The notes under the pieces: generated by a model
Database searches by the model: none
Seen by the model: only the letters and a program-made list of their open reading frames with translations
What the model was told of the DNA's origin: nothing
NCBI RefSeq assembly: GCF_002854065.1
Contig: NZ_CP024147.1
DNA from: Escherichia coli
Lineage (GTDB): Bacteria; Pseudomonadota; Gammaproteobacteria; Enterobacterales; Enterobacteriaceae
Direction: 5' to 3' (one strand)
DNA: 64,000 nt
Program-made: the position numbers and the translations under genes
Part shown: one piece after another, positions 1 to 41,162 of the stretch
How positions within the stretch are numbered: the first letter of the stretch is position 1
Layout of the letters: every line of letters starts with the position of its first letter

Positions 1-73
1 CTGTACGGCAGCGCCAATTTTCTGGGGGCGCACAAAGTCAGACTTTATCTATATTTGTAAGGGGTGAATCTTG

Positions 74-695
74 ATGACAAAAATGAGTCGCTACGCCTTG
101 ATTACTGCGCTGGCGATGTTTCTCGCCGGGTGTGTGGGGCAACGTGAACCTGCACCGGTAGAAGAAGTGAAACCAGCGCCGGAACAACCAGCCGAGCCAC
201 AACAGCCTGTCCCCACAGTGCCCTCGGTGCCGACGATCCCTCAGCAGCCAGGCCCAATTGAGCACGAAGATCAAACTGCACCGCCTGCGCCGCATATTCG
301 CCATTATGACTGGAATGGCGCAATGCAGCCGATGGTCAGTAAGATGCTTGGGGCTGACGGGGTGACTGCGGGTAGCGTCCTTCTGGTTGATAGCGTTAAC
401 AACCGTACTAACGGTTCGCTGAATGCCGCAGAAGCGACCGAAACGCTGCGAAATGCGCTGGCTAATAACGGTAAATTTACCCTGGTTTCCGCCCAGCAGC
501 TGTCGATGTCTAAGCAACAGTTAGGTTTGTCGCCGCAGGACAGTTTAGGTACCCGTAGTAAAGCCATAGGCATTGCCCGCAATGTCGGCGCTCATTACGT
601 GCTGTACTCCAGCGCCTCTGGCAACGTTAACGCTCCGACCCTACAAATGCAGCTGATGCTGGTGCAGACGGGCGAAATTATCTGGTCAGGTAAAG

Positions 696-715
<20 letters not shown>
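74..715 (+). CDS. lpoB: LpoB, outer-membrane lipoprotein activator of PBP1B
   Basis: ORF with lipoprotein signal (lipobox LAGC) followed by Pro/Gln-rich linker; matches recalled E. coli YcfM/LpoB; position upstream of thiK-nagZ. Confidence 0.88.
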
Positions 716-2556
<1,841 letters not shown>

Positions 2557-2578
2557 CCCTGGCTTATGTGAGGAAGCG

Positions 2579-3121
2579 ATGATTATCTATTTACACGGTT
2601 TTGACTCTAACAGTCCGGGTAACCACGAGAAAGTCTTACAATTGCAGTTTATTGACCCGGATGTACGCTTGATAAGCTACAGTACGCGGCATCCGAAACA
2701 TGATATGCAGCATCTGCTTAAAGAAGTGGACAAAATGTTGCAACTGAACGTTGACGAGCGTCCGCTAATTTGCGGCGTTGGCCTGGGCGGATACTGGGCT
2801 GAACGGATTGGTTTTCTTTGCGACATCCGCCAGGTGATCTTCAACCCTAATTTGTTCCCTTATGAGAACATGGAAGGCAAGATTGATCGCCCGGAAGAGT
2901 ATGCCGATATTGCCACTAAGTGTGTGACCAACTTCCGTGAGAAGAATCGCGATCGTTGCCTGGTGATTTTGTCGCGTAATGATGAAGCGCTTAACAGCCA
3001 GCGGACATCTGAAGAGTTGCATCATTATTACGAGATTGTCTGGGACGAAGAGCAGACGCACAAATTCAAGAATATCTCCCCGCATTTACAGCGCATTAAA
3101 GCGTTCAAAACCCTCGGGTAA
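2579..3121 (+). CDS. ycfP: UPF0227 family esterase-like protein YcfP
   Basis: 180-aa ORF from internal ATG ([11 protein letters not shown]...), alpha/beta-hydrolase-like HGF motif. Confidence 0.85.
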
Positions 3122-3129
3122 ATGCCCTC

Positions 3130-3260
3130 GTCGCATCAGGTAACCTTGCCGGTACCTGATGCGCTCCGAATTCTGTAAGTCGGATAAGGCGTTTACGCCG
3201 CATCCGACAGTCGAGCATCAATGCCTGATGCGCCTCTTATCAGGCCTACCGAACGCCCTG
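3130..3260. repeat. REP/BIME-type palindromic repeat cluster
   Basis: Tandem imperfect palindromes of the gcctgatgcgc...gcatccg type characteristic of E. coli REP elements, in ycfP-ndh intergenic region. Confidence 0.6.
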
Positions 3261-3521
3261 CATACACCCCTCACTCTATATCACTCTCACAAATTCGCTC
3301 AAATAATAAACAATAAACTCTGTTTTTTGATCTCACCCGGTAAAGTCGCCTATCTTTTCAGCAACAAAACTTGATTAACATCAATTTTGGTATGACCAAT
3401 GCACCATTCATGTTATTCTCAATAGCGAAGAACATTTTTCATTGCTGTAACCTGTTGTTAATTAAGAGCTATGTTAATAACCATTAATTAACAATTGGTT
3501 AATAAATTTAAGGGGGTCACG

Positions 3522-4826
3522 TTGACTACGCCATTGAAAAAAATTGTGATTGTCGGCGGCGGTGCTGGTGGGCTGGAAATGGCAACACAGCTGGGGCATA
3601 AGCTGGGACGCAAGAAAAAAGCCAAAATTACGCTGGTCGATCGTAACCACAGCCACCTGTGGAAACCGCTGCTGCACGAAGTGGCGACTGGCTCGCTTGA
3701 TGAAGGCGTCGATGCGTTGAGCTATCTGGCCCATGCGCGCAATCATGGTTTCCAGTTCCAGCTGGGTTCCGTCATTGATATTGATCGTGAAGCGAAAACA
3801 ATCACTATTGCAGAACTGCGCGATGAGAAAGGTGAACTGCTGGTTCCGGAACGTAAAATCGCCTATGACACCCTGGTAATGGCGCTGGGTAGCACCTCTA
3901 ACGATTTCAATACGCCAGGTGTCAAAGAGAACTGCATTTTCCTCGATAACCCGCACCAGGCGCGTCGCTTCCACCAGGAGATGCTGAATTTGTTCCTGAA
4001 ATACTCCGCCAACCTGGGCGCGAATGGCAAAGTGAACATTGCGATTGTCGGCGGCGGCGCGACGGGTGTAGAACTCTCCGCTGAACTGCACAACGCGGTC
4101 AAGCAACTGCACAGCTACGGTTACAAAGGCCTGACCAACGAAGCCCTGAACGTAACGCTGGTAGAAGCGGGTGAACGTATTTTGCCTGCATTACCGCCAC
4201 GTATCTCTGCTGCGGCCCACAACGAGCTAACGAAACTTGGCGTTCGCGTGCTGACGCAAACCATGGTCACCAGTGCTGATGAAGGCGGCCTGCACACTAA
4301 AGATGGTGAATATATTGAGGCTGATCTGATGGTATGGGCAGCCGGGATCAAAGCGCCAGACTTCCTGAAAGATATCGGTGGTCTTGAAACTAACCGTATC
4401 AACCAGCTGGTGGTGGAACCGACGCTGCAAACCACCCGCGATCCAGATATTTACGCTATTGGCGACTGCGCGTCATGCCCGCGTCCGGAAGGGGGCTTTG
4501 TTCCGCCGCGTGCTCAGGCTGCACACCAGATGGCGACTTGCGCAATGAACAACATTCTGGCGCAGATGAACGGTAAGCCGCTGAAAAATTATCAGTATAA
4601 AGATCATGGTTCACTGGTATCGCTGTCGAACTTCTCCACCGTTGGTAGCCTGATGGGTAACCTGACGCGCGGCTCAATGATGATTGAAGGACGAATTGCG
4701 CGCTTTGTATATATCTCGCTATACCGAATGCATCAGATTGCGCTGCATGGTTACTTTAAAACCGGATTAATGATGCTGGTGGGGAGTATTAACCGCGTTA
4801 TCCGTCCGCGTTTGAAGTTGCATTAA
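3522..4826 (+). CDS. ndh: type II NADH:quinone oxidoreductase (NDH-2)
   Basis: 434-aa product [19 protein letters not shown]... with two GxGxxG FAD/NAD folds; non-ATG start in frame. Confidence 0.93.
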
Positions 4827-37086: not shown

Positions 37087-37818
37087 TTAGGGGGCATGAA
37101 AGATGACTTTATAACCTTGCTCACCCCAGTGTTGTAAAAGTTCATTTTGCCTTCTCGTTGGTGCCATGCCTGTCCAGACAATCAATGTTTGCGTCGGGAA
37201 CAGTTCCGGGCGCGGTGATTCAATGGGATCAGCAAGAACAGAAATATGCCATCCTGACAATGATAAACGCCATGCTTCCAGCCACAATCGAGCTCTCTCT
37301 TCAACATTCCACGCCATCAGAATGGCTTCTTTACCGGGCTTACGGCGCATTTCGAAAAGCGAGGCTGCTGCGTATTCAATTAGTGCGCCGTCAAACATAC
37401 TGCTCATAATGCGGGAGGTGTTGTGATCAAGCACGAGACGCTGGCGAACAGGAAGGTAAACATGATTAATCAATTGATCTACTGGGTACTCTCGACCCAG
37501 TGAAATAATTCTCGCGCGTAGTTTGGCAGGATTAGCCATACGAAGAATTGACATCATCTCTTCTTGCAGGCGGCTCCAGTCATCTTCCGTATCCTGGCTG
37601 GTGGTTTCCAGTAATGCTTTAACTTTGCCTACAGGGACGCCATTACTTATCCAACGCTTGATCTCTTCGATACGTTGTATGTCTTCTTCATCAAAGAGTC
37701 GGTGTCCGCCTTCACTGCGCTGTGGTTTTAACAAACCGTAGCGGCGTTGCCAGGCCCGGAGAGTGACAGGATTAATCCCGCAACGTTCAGCAACATCACC
37801 AATGCTGTAATAAGCCAC
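37087..37818 (-). CDS. bluR: MerR-family repressor BluR (YcgE)
   Basis: 243-aa product with N-terminal MerR HTH ([32 protein letters not shown]). Confidence 0.9.
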
Positions 37819-37868
37819 AATTCCTCCTTGCGGTCACAAATCTCCGTCGCCTGTACACGACCCAATAA

Positions 37869-37904
37869 TACTTTGTACAATATACGCTAAAATTGTACAA
37901 AGTA
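37869..37904. promoter_or_regulatory. inverted repeat (13-bp arms) in bluR upstream region, candidate operator
   Basis: tactttgtacaat - 10 bp - attgtacaaagta, perfect 13-bp inverted repeat 50-85 bp upstream of the bluR start. Confidence 0.35.
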
Positions 37905-38022
37905 TAAATAAGATTTCAGCTAAATTGGATGAAACATTATTTTTAATGTGGATTAAATTAAAACATAACGTATTCATTTTCACGATGATTTCCAGAAAAC
38001 TTGCAAAATAATGTGCTGAAAA

Positions 38023-39234
38023 TTATTTTTTCTCCGGCCACGCAACTGAAGGGATACCATTCAATTTAGCTTTAGCAAACAGATCCCCCTGAAACATCTC
38101 AATTCCTGCGGATTCAAGCCACATCCACTCTTCTGGTGTTGCCACGCCCATAGCACTGACTTGAATTTCAAGTGATGTACAGCATTTTATGATCGCCTGA
38201 ATAATTGCCTGCCGTGGTCCGCTTTTATGAACATTGGTAATCAATTCCTGACTGATTTTAATTCTGTCAGGCTGGAAGCGTGACAGGAGTAACAAACCAG
38301 CAAAACCTGCGCCAAAATGATCAATTGCTACACTGATACCGGCAGCCTTTAGCGATTTAACCGCTTCGGCAAACTCATCAAACCGAGATATGACTTCACT
38401 TTCAGTAAATTCAACGATGATTTGTTCAGGCACCAGACCATTGGCCTTTATTTCATCAAGTAAAAAAGAGACTGCGTCAGGCTCGTTAACCAGGGTCATA
38501 GGTAATAGATTGATAGATATCATTTTATCACCGAGCTCAAGTGCGTGTGCCATCGCGAATACAAGCGCCTTACTTTTGAGATCCGCTGTGTAGATTTCCC
38601 CGTCTTTACGCTGCCCAACCGCTATAGCTGACGGGCTGTCTTCATTTTTTTGCACAATGGCTTCAAAAGCGATTATCCGCCGCGATAAGGGATCAACAAT
38701 AGGATGAAAGGCAAAGTGGTCGTTTATATTTGGTGAAAGGGTACAGGAATCAAGTTCTTTATCAGATCTGTCAGCGATAAAAAGCCAGGAGTCTTCAGCA
38801 GGGATCTCGAAATAGGTTGATTGTTCGGTTGCAAGGACAAAAGTACGAAAAAATTGTAGCGCTCTGTCATCATAAGTTAGCTGAAATTTTGATGTGCCTT
38901 TGTCGAATACGGCCTGTAAAACGTCATCTCGCTCGTGCAGGCGTAAATCAAATAATTCCATTCCTGCTTTACCAAAACGGCGAGCAGGCGCGTAATCGCA
39001 CAACAGTTCAACAATATTATAGTGCCGAGGATCCTGGCATATAGCCCGATATATCATTTGAACCTGTTCTTCCGGACCTTCCAGAAGCTGGAAAAAATGA
39101 GAACCATTAAACAGTAAGATCCCTGTTACGTCAGACTGCATGTTCCTGCGATTTGCTATCGAAACCATTTCTTCGATTTTTTTGACAGGTTCGTCGTCAC
39201 GTATATGGCTACGATAAATAAGGGTGGTAAGCAT
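38023..39234 (-). CDS. bluF: blue-light sensor BluF (BLUF plus degenerate EAL domain; YcgF)
   Basis: 403-aa product from MLTTLIYRSHIRDD...; BLUF N-terminus and EAL-like C-terminus. Confidence 0.9.
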   Translation of the reverse strand: MLTTLIYRSHIRDDEPVKKIEEMVSIANRRNMQSDVTGILLFNGSHFFQLLEGPEEQVQMIYRAICQDPRHYNIVELLCDYAPARRFGKAGMELFDLRLHERDDVLQAVFDKGTSKFQLTYDDRALQFFRTFVLATEQSTYFEIPAEDSWLFIADRSDKELDSCTLSPNINDHFAFHPIVDPLSRRIIAFEAIVQKNEDSPSAIAVGQRKDGEIYTADLKSKALVFAMAHALELGDKMISINLLPMTLVNEPDAVSFLLDEIKANGLVPEQIIVEFTESEVISRFDEFAEAVKSLKAAGISVAIDHFGAGFAGLLLLSRFQPDRIKISQELITNVHKSGPRQAIIQAIIKCCTSLEIQVSAMGVATPEEWMWLESAGIEMFQGDLFAKAKLNGIPSVAWPEKK

Positions 39235-39547
39235 TAACTGTCCAGGGTAATGGGAGAGGCGAGAGTAAGACGGTAACAGACATATCTTCCGGTGTCTTTC
39301 TTTTAATACCAAAACATAACTGTTTCTTTACATTGATAAAAAATGGAAAAAGTTGAACACGAGTTGGCGAAAAATCTTGTATAGGTTGTCAGTTAAATGA
39401 TGCAATATGTTTTATCATAACGTATTGTTTTATATGCATTAGCACTAATTGCAAAAAATTAATTTATCATTCTGTACACATATTTCGTACAAGTTTGCTA
39501 TTGTTACCTCACTTAACATTGATTAACATTTTTAACAGAGGCGTAGC

Positions 39548-39784
39548 ATGCATCAAAATTCAGTGACTTTAGATTCTGCGGGAGCAATCACTCGTTACTT
39601 TGCAAAAGCTAACTTGCCTACTCAGCAGGAAACTCTCGGGGAAATTGTGACTGAGATTTTGAAAGATGGACGTAATCTGAGTCGAAAGTCGCTTTGTGCC
39701 AAACTTCTTTGCCGACTGGAACAAGCGACAGGGGAAGAGGAACAGAAACATTATAATGCACTAATTGGGTTGCTTTTTGAATAA
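39548..39784 (+). CDS. ycgZ: small protein YcgZ (connector of two-component signalling)
   Basis: 78-aa ORF with good RBS, divergent from bluF. Confidence 0.85.
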   Translation: MHQNSVTLDSAGAITRYFAKANLPTQQETLGEIVTEILKDGRNLSRKSLCAKLLCRLEQATGEEEQKHYNALIGLLFE

Positions 39785-39813
39785 TGCAACAGCCTGATTA
39801 TTTGGATTTGCCC

Positions 39814-40719
39814 CTATATTTCCAGACATCTGTTATCACTTAACCCATTACAAGCCCGCTGCCGCAGATATTCCCGTGGCGAGCGATAACCCAGCGCACT
39901 ATGCGGATGCCATTCGTTATAATGCTCGAACGCCTCTGCAAGGTTCTTTGCTGCCGTTAACCCGTCTGGTTTGGGCATGATACTGATGTAGTCACGCTTT
40001 ATCGTTTTCACGAAGCTCTCTGCTATTCCGTTACTCTCCGGACTCCGCACCGCCGTGTTCTTCGGTTCAAGTCCCAACATCCGGGCGAACTGGCGTGTTT
40101 CATTAGCCCGGTAGCATGAACCATTATCCGTCAGCCACTCCACTGGAGACGACGGAAGATCGTTGCCGAAGCGGCGTTCCACCGCTCCCAGCATGACGTC
40201 CTGTACTGTTTCACTGTTGAAGCCGCCGGTAGTGACCGCCCAGTGCAGTGCCTCACGATCACAGCAGTCCAGCGCGAACGTGACACGCAGTCTCTCTCCG
40301 TTATCACAGCAGAACTCGAACCCGTCAGAGCACCATCGCTGATTGCTTTCTTTCACGGCCACTCTGCCTGTATGTGCCCGTTTCGATGGCGGTACAGCAG
40401 GTTTTCGCTCAAGCAACAGCGCATTCTAGCGCATGATCCGGTAAACACGTTTGGCATTGATCGCAGGCATACCATCAAGTTCTGCCTGTCTGCGAAGCAG
40501 CGCCCATACCCGACGATAACCATACGTGGGCAGCTCTCCGATAACATGGTGTATACGGAGAAGCACATCCGTATCATCAGTGTGACGACTGCGGCGGCCA
40601 TCCATCCAGTCATCGGTTCGTCTGAGAATGACGTGCAACTGCGCACGCGACACCCGGAGACAACGGCTGACTAAGCTTACTCCCCATCCCCGGGCAATAA
40701 GGGCGCGTGCGCTATCCAC
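39814..40719 (-). pseudogene. insD: IS2 transposase OrfB (InsD) interrupted by in-frame TAG at codon 98
   Basis: Frame [12 protein letters not shown]...AKRVYRIMR / TAG (rc of plus 40426-40428) / [20 protein letters not shown]...; canonical IS2 has Gln at this position as I recall. Confidence 0.75.
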
Positions 40720-41042
40720 TTTTTTGCCCGTCCATATTCAACGGCTTCTTTGAGGAGTTCATTTTCCATCGTTTTCTTGCCGAGCAGGCGCTGGAGTTCT
40801 TTAATCTGCTTCATGGCGGCAGCAAGTTCAGAGGCAGGAACAACCTGTTCTCCGGCGGCGACAGCAGTAAGACTTCCTTCCTGGTATTGCTTACGCCAGA
40901 GAAATAACTGGCTGGCTGCTACACCATGTTGCCGGGCAACGAGGGAGACCGTCATCCCCGGTTCAAAGCTCTGCTGAACAATTGCGATCTTTTCCTGTGT
41001 GGTACGCCGTCTGCGTTTCTCCGGCCCTAAGACATCAATCAT
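40677..41042 (-). CDS. insC: IS2 transposase OrfA (InsC)
   Basis: 121-aa product [34 protein letters not shown]... Confidence 0.9.
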
Positions 41043-41162
41043 CTGTTCTCCAATGACTAGTCTAAAAACTAGTATTAAGACTATCACTTATTTAAGTGAT
41101 ATTGGTTGTCTGGAGATTCAGGGGGCCAGTCTATTATTTAACAGGTTAGCTATGAAGTCGTT

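Follow-up and report, generated by a model that had tools for sequence, protein, structure and literature searches.

The window analysed here is the whole stretch of Escherichia coli DNA, 64,000 nt in length, within which bluR (ycgE) occupies positions 37087..37818 on the minus strand. The gene begins with a GTG codon and encodes a protein of 243 aa, consisting of a MerR-type helix-turn-helix (MerR_1) followed by MlrA_helical and MlrA_C domains. Upstream of it, on the same strand, lies bluF (ycgF; 38023..39234), the product of which is the BLUF-EAL anti-repressor of BluR. BluR and BluF provide a blue-light and cold input to the control of biofilm in E. coli, acting via Ymg/Rcs. In the published wiring, BluR represses only ycgZ-ymgABC.

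The spacer between the GTG codon of bluR (37818, minus strand) and the stop codon of bluF (38023) contained a perfect inverted repeat at 37868-37905, located 118 nt from the bluF stop codon; on the plus strand this reads ATACTTTGTACAAT-ATACGCTAAA-ATTGTACAAAGTAT. Viewed on the bluR strand, the palindrome consists of a promoter-distal arm (37892..37905; ATACTTTGTACAAT), a centre of 10 nt (37882..37891; TTTTAGCGTA) and a promoter-proximal arm (37868..37881; ATTGTACAAAGTAT). The preliminary description had placed a perfect repeat with 13-nt arms and an N10 centre within a 205-bp spacer at this locus; the location, the perfect match of the arms and the N10 were all upheld, but the arms proved to be 14 nt long and the spacer 204 bp. 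Each arm carries a TGTACA box embedded in TTGTACAA: box 1 in the distal arm (37894-37899) and box 2 in the proximal arm (37874-37879), both read here on the minus strand. The boxes are separated by N14, that is, by 20 bp from centre to centre. Two (T)GTACA elements are required of an operator belonging to the BluR/MlrA family, and two were present in the palindrome.

The palindrome was confirmed as real and non-random. No other perfect inverted repeat in the 64-kb window had arms of at least 13 nt and a spacer of no more than 20 nt; dinucleotide shuffling gave an expectation of 0.015 such repeats per 64 kb, with 1% of shuffles containing any and none containing two or more. When the 204-bp spacer, which is AT-rich, was shuffled by itself, such a repeat was produced at a frequency of 1e-4. 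TGTACA occurred nine times in the window, and five of these occurrences fell within 37852-39478. Among them was a third copy close to the palindrome (37852..37857, minus strand), 22 bp from box 2 and at about +16 to +21 relative to the bluR promoter (PbluR). This copy was polymorphic within E. coli, being TGTAGA in two of seven strains. On the plus strand, 37852-37881 also offered a promoter-like match that made use of the boxes (TGTACA-18-TACAAT) and would read antisense into the 3' end of bluF; this is a consensus match only.

The position of the palindrome was compared with the published 5' end of bluR, which primer extension had located 54 nt ahead of the GTG codon and which was attributed to a sigma-70 promoter (PMC3509220). 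In window coordinates this end falls at approximately 37872, inside the promoter-proximal arm. A consensus scan of the bluR strand produced only one hexamer pair that fitted the mapped end, TTTATA-18-TATATT. The putative -10 element, TATATT (37879..37884, minus strand), ends 7 nt before the published 5' end; its 5' part lies in the centre of the palindrome and its final T doubles as the opening T of box 2. The putative -35 element, TTTATA (37903..37908, minus strand), is separated from it by a spacer of 18 bp and takes in the outermost letters of the distal arm. On this assignment, the palindrome covers about -33 to +5 of PbluR, with box 1 at about -27 to -22 and box 2 at about -7 to -2 (centred near -24.5 and -4.5 respectively). 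The site therefore overlaps promoter elements of bluR, as is expected of operators in the BluR/MlrA family. The promoter assignment derives from a single primer-extension result, and the mapped end falls within the 3' arm of a potential hairpin of -16.8 kcal/mol, 4 nt in; it could conceivably have arisen from a stop of reverse transcriptase on a longer RNA, but the favourable position of TATATT speaks for a genuine start. Among the entries listed in the Cappable-seq supplements, there was none at K-12 positions 1214085 or 1214111-1214115.

The operator of BluR at ycgZ provides a direct comparison. This region contains cTGTACAcatatttCGTACAag at 39472-39493, within which the published operator (39473..39491, plus strand) takes the form TGTACA-N7-CGTACA and belongs to a short-spacing class. 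It was defined by DNase I footprinting and mutagenesis, with GTACA/TGTACA being the element that was both protected and mutated (PMC3509220). The TGTACA half-sites noticed upstream of ycgZ in the preliminary description were indeed present, and coincide with this published footprint; its suggestion that the palindrome be compared with the ycgZ operator had a divided outcome, since the hexamer is the same at both sites but the spacing is not (N14, or 20 bp between centres, at bluR; N7, or 13 bp, at ycgZ). The two sites share a locus, the TGTACA/GTACA element, the presence of two boxes, an overlap with the core promoter and an expectation of repression. However, at ycgZ the boxes cover the -35 element and spacer of a sigma-S promoter, whereas at bluR they straddle -10 and +1 of a sigma-70 promoter; and the ycgZ site has been footprinted, while the bluR palindrome is a predicted site.

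A second comparison is offered by the MlrA site at csgD, which was described as AAAGTTGTACA-N12-TGCACAATTTT (Ogasawara et al. 2010, as reported in PMC3509220). In MG1655 this site reads TTGTACA-tttggtttttat-TGCACAA or, in the direction of csgD, T-TGTGCA-ataaaaaccaaa-TGTACA-A. The consensus of bluR-proximal sites with N13 spacing (see below) was AAnT-TGTACA-AnnAAAAAnnnnT-TGTACA-A, which has the same layout: long-spaced boxes of the TGTACA type with TTGTACAA at their core, and a spacer whose A-tract runs in the direction of transcription. The csgD site differs from the bluR palindrome in having one imperfect box (TGCACA) and N12 spacing, where the palindrome has two perfect boxes and N14, and also in its context, for it is far upstream of its promoter and activating, whereas the palindrome overlaps the core promoter. 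BluR binds the csgD site, which contains TGTACA, weakly in vitro (PMC3509220), and a long-spaced pair is therefore a demonstrated, though poor, substrate for BluR. With respect to spacing, the palindrome has N14; the N12-N15 of the orthologous bluR-proximal sites (mode N13) brackets the N12 of csgD, and none of these sites, apart from those of two groups named below, has the N7 of ycgZ.

Within E. coli, the bluR-bluF spacer of the present strain, which is not K-12, was 95.4% identical to that of MG1655 and 100% identical to that of strain CUWW06. Among seven divergent strains, including MG1655, both arms of the palindrome were invariant and there was a single change anywhere within it, a G to A substitution that one strain carried in the 10-nt centre; most of the variation in the spacer adjoined bluF. 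Of the 4611 records found for a 50-bp segment around the palindrome, 4592 were 100% identical to it. Approximately 360 records matched a 281-bp query but not the 50-bp query, which would fit variants in the centre of the palindrome, and 10-12 copies of the bluR-bluF spacer in the E. coli genome collection were on records labelled as plasmids.

Conservation beyond E. coli was assessed with a profile of 17 BluR-like proteins, which was used to recover the best 80 loci from species-representative genomes. A box pair was defined as TGTACA-N5..17-TGTACA within 200 nt upstream of the gene. Among these 80 loci, 46 genes were BluR-like (54-83% identity), from Citrobacter to Pantoea and Erwinia; 32 of them were preceded by an exact pair, and 44 by a pair when one mismatch was allowed. 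Spacing of N13 was found in 23 cases, and most others had N12-N15. The distal box was located 73-89 nt before the start codon, with a median of 81 nt, which is also its distance in E. coli. More than 40 species thus retained the pair ahead of a BluR-like gene, in sequence that was otherwise unalignable between species. In a neighbour-joining tree, which resolved three clades, the pair was found in all three Yersiniaceae and in 44 of the 46 members of the BluR/Erwiniaceae clade, in addition to E. coli; it was absent from the upstream regions of all 31 loci in the enterobacterial MlrA clade.

The background frequency of such pairs was low and specific in location. Outside of the 200-nt upstream regions, 500 kb of locus DNA contained 18 exact pairs, all of which had N7 or N8 spacing and were situated 1.5-1.75 kb upstream of bluR, in the divergent region between bluF and ycgZ. 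This pair on the ycgZ side was found at a similar relative position in 18 loci exactly, and in 23 with one mismatch, among the best 80. The restriction of pairs to bluR and to the bluF-ycgZ region indicates two separately conserved spacing classes, long at bluR and short at ycgZ. Spacing of N7 proximal to bluR, as seen at ycgZ, was confined to the Enterobacter cloacae complex and Kosakonia among the best 80 loci; in the former, the sequence took the form TATACA-N7-TGTACA-N6-TAAGGT, an arrangement like that of ycgZ. The E. coli operator at ycgZ, TGTACA-N7-CGTACA, is itself a slightly degenerate copy of the conserved TGTACA-N7/8-TGTACA (loci L007-L057).

About 30 of the BluR-like loci among the best 80 had both bluF and ycgZ upstream, while around 16 (Pantoea, Erwinia, Mixta and relatives) had neither and nonetheless kept the N13 pair. 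Since the pair is retained without bluF and is absent at mlrA, the element travels with the regulator gene and not with bluF. From these comparisons, the box-pair element would predate the split between BluR and MlrA, and it is by such a pattern that an autoregulatory site is usually recognised. The two BluR-like genes that lacked the pair were those of Pseudescherichia vulneris and Escherichia sp. ESNIH1 (L017 and L020), in which bluF ends only 66 nt before bluR; these were the only bluF-linked BluR-like genes among the best 80 loci to lack it, and their N7 operators on the ycgZ side were intact. In both cases bluF and bluR are probably co-transcribed, and this suggests that the separate promoter of bluR and its operator were lost together. 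In several loci of the Pantoea type (L016, L021-L023, L038 and L069), a further palindrome, aTCTCATATATGAGAt with variants, occurred upstream of the TGTACA pair, about 115 nt before the BluR-like gene; it may terminate the gene lying upstream or serve as a further operator.

The orthologous sites also provided evidence of a promoter. In 33 of 40 sites the proximal box was followed, at a distance of 14-18 nt (16 nt in most), by a TAnnnT motif, often TAAGGT or GCTAnnnT; the chance expectation was 4.6%. This conserved motif points to a promoter whose -35 element is the proximal box, with the boxes at about -52 and -33. TAnnnT was absent from this position in E. coli, Citrobacter and Pseudocitrobacter; the third TGTACA of E. 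coli sits where the orthologues have their conserved -10-like motif, and operation of the ancestral type of promoter in E. coli was accordingly rejected. This and the mapped 5' end together point to a promoter that moved about 28 nt upstream in the clade of E. coli, Citrobacter and Pseudocitrobacter while the boxes remained fixed. The arrangement at -52 and -33 in the orthologues is also compatible with activation, and the sign of regulation may differ between lineages.

The reading preferred here is that the palindrome is an auto-operator through which BluR represses its own gene, for which we would put the probability at about 0.6; that the BluR/MlrA family has a functional binding site of one kind or another here is very probable. 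The position over the promoter, the motif and the deep conservation support the preliminary description in its view of the repeat as a candidate operator for BluR or another regulator. According to the proposed mechanism, BluR (or a family protein) would read the two TGTACA boxes at about -24.5 and -4.5, which straddle the -10 element and the start site. Occupation of the boxes by any protein should obstruct RNA polymerase, and bound BluR would exclude the polymerase from PbluR, resulting in negative autoregulation. Under blue light and cold, BluF releases BluR from DNA, and transcription of bluR would then be raised along with the derepression of ycgZ-ymgAB; the feedback would then limit and reset the response, and keep BluR low. 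The binding of BluR at the palindrome, the sign of regulation and the logic of the feedback are each what we infer. Toxicity has been reported for overproduced BluR (PMC3509220), which supplies a rationale for self-limitation. Against the auto-operator, the N14 spacing differs from the N7 of the only BluR operator to have been footprinted, and BluR is weak on the long-spaced csgD site, although one of the csgD boxes is imperfect.

Reporter fusions to bluR were reportedly used by Tschowri et al. 2009, a study outside the literature searched here. Within that literature, neither a mapped operator nor a test of autoregulation at bluR was found, which agrees with the statement of the preliminary description that no operator was known to have been mapped there; nor was any relevant SELEX, DAP-seq or ChIP-exo work on BluR found. 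Duval 2017 (PMC5491885) contained nothing on the bluR promoter, and in PPTP-seq the bluR sgRNA dropped out and the cell for PbluR is given as N/A (PMC10505187).

The most serious rival is cross-binding by MlrA, whereby MlrA, alone or with BluR, would bind the site and repress bluR in stationary phase, a form of cross-regulation linking curli and CsgD to Ymg/Rcs. We regard this as improbable, but it has several points in its favour. The spacing and layout of the bluR site are nearer to those of the MlrA site at csgD (N12, with an A-tract spacer) than to those of ycgZ (N7), and BluR and MlrA are known to cross-bind the csgD site (PMC3509220). Furthermore, the recognition region of 20 residues was invariant in all 80 proteins of the best 80 loci, being identical in the BluR and MlrA clades; this invariance matches that of the hexamer and means that MlrA could bind the bluR site in E. 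coli too. However, the pair was also present at the loci of Erwiniaceae and Yersiniaceae, where there was no second member of the family among the best 80 loci and where binding by the regulator to its own gene is the simpler explanation, and the enterobacterial mlrA genes were themselves without the site (0/31). There was also no response of bluR to mlrA in the transcription factor network obtained by PPTP-seq, but this is weak evidence since MlrA was barely expressed there.

Another alternative is that the palindrome acts as a nucleic-acid structure, either as a hairpin in read-through transcripts of bluF (a weak terminator, an insulator or a stabiliser of the 3' end) or as a cruciform in the DNA; this was considered unlikely. 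The 14-bp stem has a folding energy of -16.8 kcal/mol (z = -5.7), appears in the MFE structure of the bluF 3' region and is followed by a U-rich tail, UAUUAUUG; bluF and bluR are, moreover, separate transcription units (PMC3509220). The comparison of species speaks against the hypothesis: the boxes remained TGTACA without covariation, and the pair persisted at loci with no bluF upstream that it could terminate. In most orthologues the arms shrank to 6-9 nt and the folds were weak (z = -1 to -2.7). The bluR mRNA itself begins inside the 3' arm and is thus unable to form the hairpin. A scan for terminator-like sites across 37700-39650 called none, and an intrinsic terminator of bluF was rejected as a candidate: only 3 of the 14 pairs in the stem are G-C, the loop is 10 nt long, the tail has no clean run of U, and the site is kept in the absence of bluF. 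One case resembles compensatory change, namely Yersinia aldovae, which had independent 14-nt arms with other flanking letters (CTAAAGTTGTACAA); selection for symmetry, or correction of a quasi-palindrome, may account for this.

With regard to the arms in E. coli, these appear to be an extension, within the E. coli lineage, of an ancestral tTGTACAa-N11-tTGTACAa. The flanking profile around a single box was asymmetric, with an outer A at -3/-4 and no mirrored inner T. This asymmetry favours a site that is read as a pair and disfavours two independent 8-bp palindromes that each accept one dimer, a possibility that was set aside, although the A-rich spacer is itself asymmetric.

Another regulator with a similar box might bind the palindrome instead of a BluR/MlrA protein, such as the TetR-type regulator RcdA (TTGTnnACA), but this is very doubtful. 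RcdA has been located in the ycgF-ycgZ spacer by gSELEX and footprinting, and TGTACA is contained in its palindromic sites, TTGTGTACAttTGTACACAA for instance; the ycgE-ycgF spacer was not among its SELEX-clos or SELEX-chip targets (PMC3535384). The sequence TTGTACAA lacks the 2-nt centre of TTGTnnACA, and the RcdA motif does not accommodate orthologous boxes such as agtTGTACAa. A shifted box in the palindrome, cTTTGTACA, matched six of the eight specified positions in E. coli but failed in the orthologues. RcdA was rejected as the binder on its motif and its SELEX target lists.

Quasi-palindrome correction is an established mutational mechanism. It is a component of the final alternative, in which no regulator is involved, the boxes are promoter-like sequence (TTGTAC approximating to -35 and TACAAT to -10) and the arms are neutral products of template switching. 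Such an explanation can appeal to the consensus scans, in which several promoter-like hexamer pairs, overlapping one another, draw on the boxes, to the placement of the orthologous proximal box at a predicted -35 and to arm lengths that, beyond TTGTACAA, are mostly within chance; but it is scarcely credible, given that a -35 role leaves unexplained a second and equally invariant box 19 bp upstream, that the identical hexamer pair at the BluR-repressed ycgZ promoter is also unexplained, and that the hexamer matches the recognition element defined experimentally for BluR and MlrA.

Returning to the reading of the palindrome as an auto-operator, the likely structure of BluR bears on how a single protein could recognise sites with different spacing. 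By sequence, its closest solved relatives are the DBDs of LitR, CarH and CarA. An AlphaFold model of BluR (pLDDT 82) had its best match in the full-length B12 photoreceptor CarH (5c8d/e/f; E about 1e-9 over approximately 270 columns), and CarH was followed in the ranking by B12-binding modules, ahead of the MerR sensors with coiled coils. Comparison of this model suggests that MlrA_helical and MlrA_C together form a CarH-like helical bundle plus a Rossmann-like module. The DBDs of CarH and CarA read TnnACA in 11-bp repeats, the number and arrangement of which are variable and which often overlap the -35 element (PMC9304148). TGTACA satisfies TnnACA on both strands. In both systems, operators overlap promoter elements, their arrangement is plastic and the regulator controls its own transcription unit, this being a proposal on the BluR side; the carB operon encodes both CarA and CarH (PMC9304148). 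There is a further likeness in the removal of the repressor from DNA by a light-controlled protein antagonist, which is CarS for CarA (PMC9304148) and BluF for BluR. The CarH repeats are direct and have a period of 11 bp, whereas the boxes of the BluR family are self-palindromic and lie 13 or 19-20 bp apart, rather than 11 or 22 bp. By analogy with CarH, tethered DBDs could reach boxes at either of these distances.

A broader scheme can be advanced on this basis, though only tentatively. BluR and MlrA would be CarH-like proteins with tethered DBDs, and not coiled-coil MerR dimers, reading TGTACA in two conserved geometries, N7 at ycgZ and N13/14 at their own promoter. The auto-operator would be older than the duplication that gave rise to BluR and MlrA, having been kept by the former and lost by the latter, and the two geometries would confer differences in occupancy and in sensitivity to BluF, creating an adaptation loop. 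Classical MerR promoters share with bluR a regulator with a MerR-type helix-turn-helix and an operator that overlaps the promoter. In those promoters, however, the dyad is centred in a -35/-10 spacer of 19-20 bp, whereas at bluR the spacer is 18 bp and the dyad centre (37886/37887) lies at about -14.5. The classical MerR geometry was rejected for this site, given a dyad displaced from the centre of the spacer and arms that extend from -33 past -10 to +5, and the bluR site, unlike those promoters, implies no mechanism of activation by distortion.

If the palindrome is a self-operator of BluR, it would add a feedback loop to the blue-light circuit; BluR would be self-limited, which is relevant to a protein that is toxic in excess, and derepression by light followed by resynthesis of the repressor would produce adaptation. 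Reporter and knockout studies that assume constant transcription of bluR would then need to be re-read. The consensus tTGTACAa-N11-tTGTACAa and the N7 class could also be used to find targets of the BluR/MlrA-like regulators in Erwiniaceae and Yersiniaceae, which are widespread and little studied. The two geometries raise a structural question besides, that of how one recognition helix serves two spacings.

The known target of BluR is itself interrupted in this strain. An IS2-like element was present at 39804-41126 (with InsC/InsD-like ORFs at 39814-41087, minus strand), between the stop codon of ycgZ (39784) and ymgA, and the K-12 sequence was colinear on both sides of it (K-12 locus positions 1-3045 and 3032-4501). 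The insertion splits the BluR-controlled ycgZ-ymgA-ariR-ymgC operon after ycgZ.
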